A DNA stretch of 64,000 bases, taken from the NCBI GenBank assembly GCA_965219955.1, contig OZ244799.1, positions 3,904,001 through 3,968,000 of the forward strand, given 5' to 3'. Shown here in pieces: positions 46,102 through 52,034 of this stretch. The translations under genes were made by a program, and so were the position numbers. Each line of letters opens with the position of its first letter. Positions within the stretch are counted from its first letter, which is position 1. The notes beneath the pieces were generated by a model, which made no database searches, was not told where the DNA came from, and worked only from the letters and a program-made list of their open reading frames with translations. The stretch is from a bacterium (GTDB lineage Bacteria > UBA8248).

Positions 46102-46560
46102 CTACAACGTCCCGTTGATGGCGTAGTTGAGGATCCGCACCACCTGTTCGGGTTCCTCGGCCACGGCCATGGCGGCGGCGTCGACTTCCTTGAGGGCGTG
46201 GGTGTGGCCCGCGTCGTGCAGGGTGATGAGGGCTTTCCCCAGAGCCGCCGCGTAGCCCGCGTCGAACGCGGCGTTCCACTGCCTGTATTTCTCCCCGAAG
46301 CGCACGACCACCACGTCCGCCTTCTCGATGAGCGTGCGCGTCCTGATGGCGTTCACGCCCGCGCCCTTGCGGTCTTTCCAGAACGGTTTTTCCTCATCGC
46401 CGAGAATCGACACGCCGCAATCGTCGCTCGCGTCGTGGTCCGTGACGGGGGCGAGAAAGGTGATCGGCAGGCCCGCCCTCTCCGCTCCCCCGGTGATGCG
46501 TTCGCGCCAGTCGGTGTGCACTTCCCCGGATAGATAGACCGTCCAACTCGTCTGCGACAT
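46102..46560 (-). CDS. YtoQ family protein
   Basis: VYLSGEVHTDWRE, RFGEKYRQWNAAFDAG, HALKEVD. Confidence 0.88.
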   Translation of the reverse strand: MSQTSWTVYLSGEVHTDWRERITGGAERAGLPITFLAPVTDHDASDDCGVSILGDEEKPFWKDRKGAGVNAIRTRTLIEKADVVVVRFGEKYRQWNAAFDAGYAAALGKALITLHDAGHTHALKEVDAAAMAVAEEPEQVVRILNYAINGTL

Positions 46561-46629
46561 GAACCATGCTCCTTATGCATTGAAGATAAATGGTGTGGTT
46601 GATGGAAATTTTTCAGATGGCGCGACGTG

Positions 46630-46660
46630 AAAAACCCCGGCCCTTTCGGACCGGGGTCTT
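46630..46660 (-). terminator. Intrinsic terminator
   Basis: Minus strand CCCCGGTCC-GAAA-GGGCCGGGG-TTTTT. Confidence 0.8.
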
Positions 46661-46736
46661 TCATCGTTCGGTGACCTGGTGGGGATTCGCCTGGGCGAAG
46701 AATGAACCCATGGGAATCTCCTCAGGGCTCTCTCCC

Positions 46737-46775
46737 CTAGGCGCCGGTCACCTCGTCCCTACAGTGTATTTTCAT
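46737..46775 (-). CDS. Putative 12-aa peptide MKIHCRDEVTGA
   Basis: Preceded by AGAAAGGAGGTGATCC-TAAT-ATG; framed by its own promoter-like element and a terminator. Confidence 0.5.
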   Translation of the reverse strand: MKIHCRDEVTGA

Positions 46776-46807
46776 ATTAGGATCACCTCCTTTCTGACGT
46801 ACCTGGA

Positions 46808-46836
46808 ATCATCGGGAAAGCGAGGAGAAAAGTCAA
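46808..46836 (-). promoter_or_regulatory. Putative sigma70 promoter of the small transcript
   Basis: TTGACT-17 bp-GATGAT on the minus strand. Confidence 0.5.
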
Positions 46837-46935: not shown

Positions 46936-47028
46936 GGAGAGGTGTCCGAGAGGCCGAAGGAGTACGACTGGAAATCGTATAGGTGCCCACAAGGTGCCTC
47001 GAGGGTTCGAATCCCTCCCTCTCCGCCA
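46936..47028 (+). tRNA. tRNA-Ser(GGA)
   Basis: GGAGAGG/CCTCTCC acceptor stem, anticodon arm TACGA-CTGGAAA-TCGTA, long variable arm, GGTTCGAATCC, encoded CCA. Confidence 0.96.
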
Positions 47029-47173
47029 GTTTTCATACCGGCAGACTTGTCGGGAGAGTTGAGCTGCCCGCATTCTCTTTTCTACGGGCGCGCCGCCCTC
47101 GGAACATACCCCCGGCCGTGCGGATGGAGCAGACGCTTTGCGAAACGCCGCGAAGAACGAGAATAAAACAAGA

Positions 47174-47638
47174 TTGAATTTCTTCCGCCTGGACGCGACC
47201 CAGCAGCTTCCCATAGAACCCGACGCCGCCTGGGCGTTTTTCTCGAATCCCCGGAATCTCGCGGAGATCACGCCGCCCGAACTCCACCTGGTCGTCGAGA
47301 ACGAGTTGCCTTTGAAGATGCACCCCGGCGTCCTCATCTGCTACCGGGTGAAGCCCCTTCTCGGGATTCCGGTGCACTGGGTCACGGAGATCACCCACGT
47401 GGAGGAGGGCAGCTTCTTCGTGGACGAACAGCGCTTCGGCCCCTATCGCTTCTGGCACCACCAGCACCATTTTCAGCCGATCGAAGGAGGCGTCGAGATG
47501 CGCGACATCATCCACTACAAGCTGCCGCTGGGGCCTCTCTCGTTCCTGGTCGACAGCTTCGTGGTGGGGCGGCAACTGCGCCGCATCTTCTCCTACCGCG
47601 AAGAGGCGCTCACGAAGCGCTTCGGGCGGATGAATTGA
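47174..47638 (+). CDS. SRPBCC family protein (start uncertain)
   Basis: WAFFSNPRNLAEITP, FVDEQRFGPYRFWHHQHHF, IFSYR. Confidence 0.85.
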   Translation: MNFFRLDATQQLPIEPDAAWAFFSNPRNLAEITPPELHLVVENELPLKMHPGVLICYRVKPLLGIPVHWVTEITHVEEGSFFVDEQRFGPYRFWHHQHHFQPIEGGVEMRDIIHYKLPLGPLSFLVDSFVVGRQLRRIFSYREEALTKRFGRMN

Positions 47639-51901: not shown

Positions 51902-52034
51902 CCTGCGATGGAGTCGACCGGCCAGGCGCCCTCGTGGCACCCGGGAGTGTCCACTTACCGCTGCTTCCTTCCGGACCTGACGGGGTTCGCGGGCTCCCGC
52001 CGCACGAGACCCAACCGGCCGAATCCATCGCAGG
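51902..52034 (-). ncRNA. ffs: Signal recognition particle RNA (ends approximate)
   Basis: GTCAGGTCCGGAAGGAAGCAGC helix-8 motif in a long hairpin; usual position upstream of dnaX. Confidence 0.95.

Follow-up and report, generated by a model that had tools for sequence, protein, structure and literature searches.

Small mRNAs whose 5' part is complementary to the full 3' tail of 16S rRNA are known from a single experimental description, in alpha-proteobacteria (Hahn et al. 2016, RNA Biol 14:1353, PMC5711450). According to the available text of that paper, rreB of the Bradyrhizobiaceae is a 165-nucleotide (nt) small mRNA located beside a tRNA-Gly gene; 17 nt of it are complementary to the 16S 3' end, and its GTG-initiated small open reading frame (sORF) has 14 codons; rreR, found in the Rhodobacterales, has an sORF of 18 codons, and an Azospirillum rre is reported with an ATG start. 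The rreB RNA co-sediments with the 30S subunit, for which the 5' extension of its Shine-Dalgarno (SD) sequence is required; it is weakly translated, and its half-life increases from 10 to 37 min in the absence of the start codon. The same text reports rre analogues only in four alpha-proteobacterial orders and calls their function elusive. Here we describe an element located on the minus strand, at positions 46836..46630, of a 64,000-nt stretch of bacterial DNA (GTDB lineage Bacteria; UBA8248; contig OZ244799.1 of assembly GCA_965219955.1, positions 3,904,001 to 3,968,000), hereafter called the window. It is probably a stand-alone small mRNA of the kind represented by rre and by the actinobacterial Rfam family Ms_IGR-5, namely a high-affinity 30S ligand with ribosome-controlled translation and decay.

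Two families catalogued in Rfam as small RNAs (sRNAs) are also relevant. Ms_IGR-5 (RF02471) is an actinobacterial sRNA for which RNA-seq support is listed for S. lividans in the available part of PMC8079986. CC2171 (RF01867) is a Caulobacter sRNA; a Northern blot detected its expression in Methylorubrum, and according to the accessible text of the report (bioRxiv 10.1101/2022.01.24.477521) it is not known to respond to any condition. The literature searched treats both solely as sRNAs that were catalogued or confirmed by Northern blot or RNA-seq, and citations of Hahn et al. were found from the same laboratory only. A paper on extended SD sequences in S. aureus deals, in its available part, with ordinary mRNAs and not with a class of mini-mRNAs (PMC13009471).

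The unit and its match to the 16S rRNA tail

The features of the locus are as follows.

46808..46836, minus strand: sigma-70-like promoter-like site, with -35 TTGACT (46836-46831), a 17-nt spacer and -10 GATGAT (46813-46808)
46780..46795, minus strand: SD1, AGAAAGGAGGTGATCC, perfectly complementary over 16 nt to the 3' tail of the organism's own 16S rRNA
46779-46776, minus strand: A/U-rich spacer TAAT between SD1 and the ATG
46737..46775, minus strand: 12-codon ORF encoding MKIHCRDEVTGA, from ATG (46775-46773) to TAG (46739-46737)
46756..46782, minus strand: hairpin H1 (RNAalifold), pairing UCCU of SD1 with GGGA of codons 6-7 and AUA with UGU, and enclosing the start codon
46748..46754, minus strand: SD2, GAGGTGA, an SD-like sequence inside the ORF (codons E8-V9), by direct reading
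46744..46752, minus strand: 5' strand of helix P1, GGTGACCGG, within the ORF, from alignment pairing counts
46686..46699, minus strand: hairpin P3, TTCGC-CCAG-GCGAA, from pairing counts in the family
46679..46687, minus strand: conserved unpaired motif AATCCCCAC, directly 5' of the P1 3' strand, from the cross-phylum alignment A2 (see below)
46670..46679, minus strand: 3' strand of P1, CCAGGTCACC, which resembles the 16S tail (GGUCACC vs GAUCACC)
46630..46660, minus strand: intrinsic terminator with a 13-bp stem, a GAAA loop and T5, the T-run ending at 46630
46936-47028, plus strand: tRNA-Ser(GGA) gene, divergent from the small-RNA unit
46102-46560, minus strand: YtoQ ORF (PF11071, E 2.3e-65), about 70 nt downstream of the unit

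The original prediction had been made from the sequence of the window alone, and the promoter, the 16S complement, the 12-codon ORF and the GAAA-loop terminator that it named were all recovered by direct reading of the minus strand. Its two neighbours, a divergent tRNA-Ser gene and a downstream ytoQ, were likewise confirmed, the former as tRNA-Ser(GGA) on the plus strand and the latter by the PF11071 match, and its view of the unit as stand-alone agrees with the promoter, the terminator and the conservation in the family. The promoter-like site is the only one between 46000 and 47400 (shuffle mean 0.4), and its TTGAC and GAT(G/A)AT hexamers are retained over 30 aligned loci with a variable spacer. 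Transcription is expected to start near 46802-46800, which would yield an RNA with a predicted length of about 172 nt. The terminator was found by reading and folding, a simple terminator scan having failed to list it. The ORF reads ATG AAA ATA CAC TGT AGG GAC GAG GTG ACC GGC GCC TAG, with SD2 located 8 nt upstream of the last sense codon and exactly 3 codons between its GTG and the stop.

SD1 is the sole match to AGAAAGGAGGTGATCC in the window even when two mismatches are allowed (0.05 expected). Its 13-nt core AAGGAGGTGATCC occurs twice in the 4.28-Mb genome, in the small-RNA unit and at the 3' end of the 16S gene, which reads ...GGATCACCTCCTTTCT and then AAGG; since the core is found only at these two places, the 16-nt complement is that of the organism's own rRNA tail. 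With the mature 16S 3' end positioned as in other bacteria, the complement would be expected to stop at the end of the tail. The 13-nt core marks a single 16S 3' end in this single-contig assembly (locus L001, G000:C1:3780823-3780835), which would mean either that there is one rrn operon or that copies are collapsed or end-variable. The duplex between SD1 and the 16S tail has a computed free energy of -29.9 kcal/mol, against a computed cost of 5.1 kcal/mol for unfolding the 16 nt. As the original prediction stated, a 16-nt pairing goes far beyond the needs of initiation. The 5' purine run of SD1 is predicted to be unpaired, and GAUCC and the start codon to be paired. With 16 nt of perfect complement to its own 16S 3' end, the element reaches the length of at least 16 nt directly before the sORF that defines the rre RNAs.

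The plus strand thus carries a 16S end sequence about 140 nt upstream of the tRNA gene, as might be left by a relic of an rRNA operon or arise by chance. This explanation has next to no credibility: only 16 nt match, the flanks are unlike 16S and Rfam finds no rRNA here, and the conservation with covariation across many genomes described below rules out chance.

Metatranscriptome assemblies provided a weak hint of expression, and contigs are the only evidence from RNA libraries. In two runs, each from a different study, contigs fell on the unit: a 162-nt contig matched 46597-46758 exactly, and a 184-nt contig, which comes from a relative, lay at 46603-46788. No contig was found on the element in runs X4 and X6, and parts of it were uncovered in X1 and X5, which is not evidence of absence. 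Small shares of words in sponge, coral and marine runs were not taken as a sign of habitat.

Conservation, neighbourhood and fold in the family

By blastn, the unit was found in all 22 genomes of the genus, in 33/36 family genomes and in none of 24 genomes outside the family; the three family genomes without a match are 87-96% complete. It is a single-copy element in its own genome, where the covariance model R1 (see below) scores it at 96.5 bits, with the 16S end as the next match at E 0.1. The family alignment preserves both promoter hexamers (-35 and -10), the SD complement, the A/U-rich spacer with the ATG, the ORF, the terminator and the outer helix; the promoter spacer and far flanks diverge. 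Within the family the codons of the ORF are invariant even at synonymous sites, which, together with the diverging promoter spacer, points to a constraint at the RNA level. The same or nearly the same peptide is also encoded at two loci labelled "bacterium" (L073, L125) and one labelled "uncultured Nitrospinaceae bacterium" (L122).

An opposite-strand tRNA gene lies upstream of the unit in 16/16 loci scanned; one genus has tRNA-Cys(GCA) in this place, and otherwise the gene is tRNA-Ser(GGA). Downstream, ytoQ follows only in the genus of the window; the tRNA-Cys genus has an ORF there that was called hemE-like by eye from its sequence, and others have other genes. These data bear on the suggestion of the original prediction that the RNA is a translation-coupled leader or attenuator governing read-through into ytoQ. 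The unit is indeed on the same strand as ytoQ and about 70 nt upstream of it, an arrangement kept within the genus. However, because the downstream gene differs between genera while the element and its strong terminator stay, the unit is not a dedicated ytoQ leader; moreover, ytoQ carries its own AAGGAG site, relatives in other phyla share no neighbour, and inspection of the family alignment, the only means used here, revealed no conserved anti-terminator or alternative fold. The attenuator reading is therefore very improbable.

In the tRNA-Cys genus (g2), three units (L028, L030, L031), which adjoin the tRNA-Cys and hemE-like genes, have GGAGGTGGTCG as SD1 instead of GGAGGTGATCC, a shorter perfect complementarity unless their 16S tail differs. 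Beyond the tRNA-Ser gene of the window, a 166-amino-acid (aa) ORF (47138-47638, plus strand) matches no Pfam family at E up to 0.001 and is shared by several genomes of the genus. The window also contains a bacterial small signal recognition particle (SRP) RNA, an ordinary housekeeping RNA, at 51917-52016 on the minus strand (RF00169, 74.4 bits).

The 186-nt stretch 46625-46810 is more stable than its shuffled versions (z = -5.6). To evaluate its helices, 29 distinct family sequences were aligned with MAFFT (alignment A1), four helices were placed and the paired cells were then counted. Over 34 pairs, 95.2% of the cells are paired, 10 pairs have changed on both sides and 0/500 shuffles were as good, and sliding the partner strand reduced the paired cells to 32-55%. 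The terminator (97.3% of cells paired, 6 pairs changed on both sides) and P3 (UUCGC/GCGAA, 94.5%) are well kept, as is H1 (UCCU/GGGA and AUA/UGU, 96.1%), which shows little covariation. P1 (GGUGACCGG/CCAGGUCACC) is paired in 91.9% of the cells, and one of its pairs is A-U in 21 sequences, G-C in 6 and G-U in 2. On the coding side this same change replaces Thr by Ala, the change from ACC to GCC being matched by T to C in the partner; the changes in P1 alter a coding residue, and the "peptide" therefore follows the helix. The outer pairing proposed earlier (GGTGACCGG/CCAGGTCACC) is accordingly upheld by covariation, and the inner one (GGAGATTC/GAATCCCC) is unsupported, since it is paired in 75.4% of the cells with 0 changes on both sides and 198/500 shuffles as good, and competes with the better-kept P3 hairpin TTCGC-CCAG-GCGAA. 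Pairing of the tail-like strand with SD1 was considered by hand as an alternative that might form a switch, and amounts to 4-7 bp only.

The same layout across bacteria

A search of 401 genomes for a 15-nt SD core without the 16S continuation after it matched 39 genomes, compared with 1 for the reversed control pattern. In nine matched genomes of other families the same layout was recognized by eye, comprising a promoter, the SD, a start codon 1-3 nt further on, an ORF of 13-18 codons, a structured domain and a terminator. A genome search of this kind had been proposed in the original prediction, and units with SD, short ORF and terminator do exist outside rRNA loci.

Species representatives were then scanned for AAGGAGGTGATCC with a start codon within 5 nt and GAGGTGRC 18-48 nt later, which yielded at least 120 stretches, with 80 loci listed. 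Many of the listed loci are close relatives (Streptomyces, Kitasatospora), and their counts overstate independence. The actinobacterial labels among these matches are Streptomyces, Kitasatospora, Nocardioides, Nocardia, Brachybacterium and other Actinomycetota; further labels are several Acidobacteria, Krumholzibacteriia, Zixiibacteriota, Ignavibacteria, Spirochaetia, Eisenbacteria, a "delta proteobacterium" and Rhodobacterales, together with metagenome-assembled genomes carrying the peptide type of the window itself. Among the matches listed, the start is in frame with GAGGTG in 77/80, the ORF has 12-18 codons in 76 (12 codons in 60), and exactly 3 codons separate the GTG from the stop in 73 of these 76 short ORFs; the pattern demanded none of these features. 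Three loci (L072, L109, L123) were dropped for want of an in-frame start and one (L119), with a 101-aa ORF, was taken as a chance match. The start codon of the listed matches is ATG in 27, GTG in 27 and TTG in 23, and the triplet at the stop position is TAG in 49, TGA in 23 and TAA in 6 over a wider set of 85 loci. The same frame rules hold in every labelled phylum among the matches listed. Since synonymous start and stop signals interchange at fixed positions, the reading frame is a real one.

A genuine, conserved frame would also be expected of a micropeptide gene in which the strong ribosome-binding site serves the 12-residue MKIHCRDEVTGA as a functional product, and which the original prediction had offered as one possibility. 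The ATG, the AAA second codon and the A/U-rich spacer all favour initiation, the peptide changes little within the family, and RreB and RreR are each conserved within their clade (PMC5711450, available text). Yet the 77 in-frame loci among the matches listed encode 56 distinct peptides with only E-V (GAGGUG) in common, the synonymous sites are invariant within the family and the C-terminal codons change with their P1 partners; according to the same text, the synthetic RreB and RreR peptides are unstructured and overproduction of rreB has no phenotype. The proposed comparison of peptide with structure conservation was thus in favour of the structure, P1 covarying while only E-V is kept across relatives. 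A functional micropeptide is unlikely. Given that starts and stops interchange, the peptide is unconserved and P1 covaries, selection keeps the reading frame and the RNA fold and not the peptide.

The layout of the class thus consists of an extended SD, an in-frame ORF of 10-18 codons with GAGGUG, P1 (GGUGRC/GYCACC), the AAUCCC motif and a terminator. From 53 non-redundant sequences, 44 diverse ones were aligned with MAFFT (A2), leaving out those with no clear 3' strand within 130 nt or beside the motif (L041, L066, L075, L095, L105, L112, L121) or with no P1 candidate (L068, L088); the end of L083 was moved to a candidate adjacent to the motif. In A2, P1 is paired in 88.6% of the cells, compared with 27-52% when the partner was slid, and 0/500 shuffles were as good; one of its pairs is G-C in 23 sequences, A-U in 12 and G-U in 7. 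These column-wise counts on the MAFFT alignments were relied on because shuffle tests on single sequences are not discriminating, the RNAs being G+C-rich and the unconstrained search for the best duplex sometimes falling in the terminator. A helix equivalent to H1, between GAUCC of the SD and a GGAU-like stretch of the ORF, is present in A2 with a register that shifts; when counted in the register of the actinobacterial sequences, it is paired in 64.6% of the cells, and 1/500 shuffles was as good. Two pairs beyond the invariant UCC/GGA, 25-51 and 26-50, covary in this wider set, one column pair reading G-C 13, U-A 4, A-U 3, U-G 3 and the other A-U 12, G-C 12, G-U 5, U-G 2.

The covariance model R1, built from A2, had matches in 12/80 non-family genomes, namely in 5/7 genomes of the sister family of the class and 7/73 of other families. 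Four of these 12 genomes are in the seed, and the 8 others all (8/8) have the in-frame start, E-V, 3 codons and the stop. Clustering of the ORFs around the relatives in other phyla revealed no common neighbour, only synteny at the lineage level and generic ABC-transporter ATPases. A tRNA gene lies within 500 nt in only 9/85 of the wider loci, and tRNA adjacency is therefore a lineage habit and not a feature of the class.

On the 3' side, the motif AAUCC(C)A(A/C) is conserved in sequence and unpaired across phyla, as would be expected if the 3' domain (P3 and AAUCCCCAC) were the effector of a trans-acting sRNA with protein or RNA targets, the ORF module controlling its exposure or stability. 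That Ms_IGR-5 and CC2171 are catalogued as sRNAs, the latter with the Northern signal in Methylorubrum mentioned above, fits this idea. On the other hand, such an sRNA would have no known target, the remainder of the 3' domain varies greatly in both length and sequence, and the rreB fragment that accumulates is reported, in the available text, to carry the ORF and not the 3' untranslated region (UTR) (PMC5711450). We regard a translation-gated trans-acting sRNA as improbable.

Several loci deserve separate mention. L042 (G115) and L043 (G278) have a 15-nt extended SD followed 1 nt further by the ATG of a Lys/Arg-Ala-Val repeat protein (MPVKAKKKATKKKVAKKK...), of 73 residues in L042 and at least 56 in L043, where it is cut by the contig end; because the SD stands here before longer ORFs, a full-tail SD is not confined to the mini-ORF class. 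In L194 (G060; element near 1501-1647) the 16S complement continues on the 3' side (GGAGGTGATCCAGCC); its pairing would run beyond the single-stranded part of the tail and reach the 3' strand of helix 45, and a GTG start lies 6 nt further on. In the Kitasatospora loci (L069-L141) a tRNA-Met(CAT) gene precedes the element on the same strand, at a distance of either 120-170 or about 1,020-1,150 nt, which suggests an insertion of about 0.9 kb between the two in some species.

Proposed mode of action and comparison with known systems

The small-mRNA reading favoured here leads to the following scheme, in which 30S binding, weak translation and start-codon-dependent turnover of the window RNA are taken from rreB and would hold by analogy. 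The purine-rich 5' part of SD1 (AGAAAGGAGG) would be exposed as a toehold, with GAUCC and the start codon inside H1; a free 30S subunit could dock on the exposed purines, its tail displacing H1 to form the very stable 16-bp duplex. Docking, displacement of H1 and the stability of the duplex would together make the RNA a high-affinity, slow-initiating 30S ligand. In closed P1, SD2 (GAGGUGA) would be sequestered by the internal strand that resembles the 16S tail, and translation of the 12-codon frame would open it. The 8-nt distance between SD2 and the last sense codon is invariant across phyla and resembles that between an SD and a start codon; with a ribosome at the stop codon, SD2 would lie 8 nt behind the P site, at an initiation-like distance, and the tail could re-pair with it. 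The passage of the ribosome would then decide the folding and decay of the RNA, and possibly the fate of the 3' domain with its AAUCCC motif. From these features we infer toehold invasion, recapture at SD2 and a role tied to free mature 30S subunits.

A simpler use of the same affinity would be a sponge or store, the RNA sequestering or protecting free 30S subunits or 16S tails in stoichiometric amounts, for example during stress. The 16-bp duplex with the whole tail (-29.9 kcal/mol) is in keeping with it, and the original prediction had proposed that the RNA may trap or store 30S subunits. The binding part of that proposal would stand by analogy, rreB sitting on 30S in gradients, and the stoichiometric part fits poorly with the data of the rreB authors, whose available text describes an RNA far rarer than ribosomes, with no effect on growth upon 20-fold overproduction (PMC5711450). 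Furthermore, the gene is single-copy with an ordinary promoter, and a sponge would leave the conserved ORF length, the spacing between SD2 and the stop, and P1 unexplained. A sponge or store is thus quite unlikely, and a role in regulation or sensing, linked to free mature 30S, is favoured over stoichiometric storage because of the single-copy gene and the harmless overproduction of rreB.

A number of observations weigh against the small-mRNA reading proposed here. Overproduction of rreB gave no phenotype that would point to a biological output (PMC5711450, available text). The ATG, the 4-nt A/U spacer and the AAA second codon favour efficient and not weak initiation, and translation may be stronger here than in rreB. 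H1 is nearly invariant within the family, its register differs between lineages, and the fold of the single sequence pairs SD1 otherwise, although an H1-like hairpin is also predicted for rreB in the text cited. The 3' trimming points of A2 were chosen partly by pairing, which favours P1, and the per-sequence P1 tests are weak, 12/53 and 16/53 sequences beating at least 95% of their shuffles. The metatranscriptome contigs are silent on strand, ends and transcription, and ytoQ is covered at a similar depth. Finally, the Rfam scores are well below the gathering cutoffs (21.3 vs 45 bits for Ms_IGR-5 and 21.8 vs 75 bits for CC2171), and these weak matches lean on the SD and the terminator.

Among known systems, the leader-peptide attenuators such as trp and his share with the element a short ORF, pairing of its 3' part with downstream sequence and a following terminator. 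The element differs from them in having neither runs of regulatory codons nor a conserved downstream operon. To our knowledge, no attenuator has an SD approaching this length.

The likeness to rreB and rreR is closer. These are stand-alone units of about 165 nt with a promoter and a terminator, as the window element, of a predicted length of about 172 nt, probably is too, and all have a 16-17-nt complement near the 5' end and a very short sORF directly after it; rreB adjoins tRNA-Gly and the window element tRNA-Ser. The latter belongs to a different lineage, has 12 codons instead of 14 or 18 and a dissimilar peptide, and its ATG follows a 4-nt TAAT, whereas the first base of the rre GTG joins the complement, a feature of the rre sORF that is lacking here. 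The available text of PMC5711450 describes no in-ORF GAGGUG, P1 helix or AAUCCC motif for rre.

The original prediction could not assign the element to a named family, and the Rfam scan it had proposed supports this in the strict sense, since no family reached its threshold: at gathering thresholds only tRNA and SRP RNA were found in the window, and nothing for seven related loci of other families or for the non-actinobacterial loci tested. A described kind does exist, however, that of rre and Ms_IGR-5. In E-value mode, full-length weak matches were obtained with CC2171 (21.8 bits) and Ms_IGR-5 (21.3 bits), and the element is the best match of both models in its own genome, at E 0.028 for CC2171 and at E 0.016 for Ms_IGR-5, whose model has no other match there at E up to 1. 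All four loci tested from Streptomyces, Kitasatospora and Brachybacterium are Ms_IGR-5, at 64-89 bits, and the Nocardioides locus tested reached no Rfam threshold.

The consensus of Ms_IGR-5 has its parts in the same order as the element, GGAAGGAGGUGGUCC, a 12-codon frame ending in ..GAG GUG GCU GCC CGC UAG, AAUuCCccGcAGuCACC and a terminator, and the counterpart of AAUuCCccGcAGuCACC in the window is GAAUCCCCACCAGGUCACC. The window element thus shares the order of motifs (extended SD, 12-codon GAGGUGRC frame, AAUCC..CAG.UCACC and terminator). Ms_IGR-5 is nevertheless filed as a non-coding sRNA with a consensus structure that lacks P1, and its middle domain and terminator are unlike those of the window. 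That consensus structure (as for L074:1093-1290) pairs the SD with GCUGCC of the ORF and leaves AAUuCCccGcAGuCACC unpaired. Alignment counts favour pairing of GGUGRCUGC with GCAGUCACC over the RF02471 structure, and the Ms_IGR-5 family has a conserved 12-codon frame. The consensus of CC2171 begins with cAAcaAucGAAAGGAGGUGAUCCAGUG (..GAAAGGAGGUGAUCCAGUG) and has its terminator about 160 nt further on, in the rre layout with a GTG start; only its SD and terminator align with the element, and its interior is unrelated.

These comparisons suggest that Ms_IGR-5 and CC2171 are translated mini-mRNAs and not non-coding RNAs. A bolder view, put forward tentatively and more doubtful than not, is that the element, Ms_IGR-5, CC2171 and rreB/rreR represent lineage-specific forms of a single ancient riboregulator with a patchy, pan-bacterial distribution, in which toehold-gated loading of 30S, a fixed mini-ORF, P1 as an SD/anti-SD mimic and recapture at SD2 would sense the supply or quality of mature free 30S, to be read out by decay, refolding or the 3' domain. 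If free mature 30S is indeed sensed in this way, the class would represent a widespread and unrecognised layer of ribosome homeostasis. Its invariants, a GAGGUG that stands in frame with 3 codons left to the stop and the pairing of this GAGGUG with a strand similar to the 16S tail, were not found in the literature searched, and offer concrete features to mutate in tractable hosts such as Streptomyces, Mycolicibacterium smegmatis, Caulobacter and Bradyrhizobium. The device described experimentally in the rre RNAs of alpha-proteobacteria is now found in an unrelated lineage; judged from its sequences, the rre-type class is apparently very widespread, far beyond its described range, and one architecture joins the Rfam "sRNAs" Ms_IGR-5 and CC2171 with unannotated loci under at least nine phylum-level labels.

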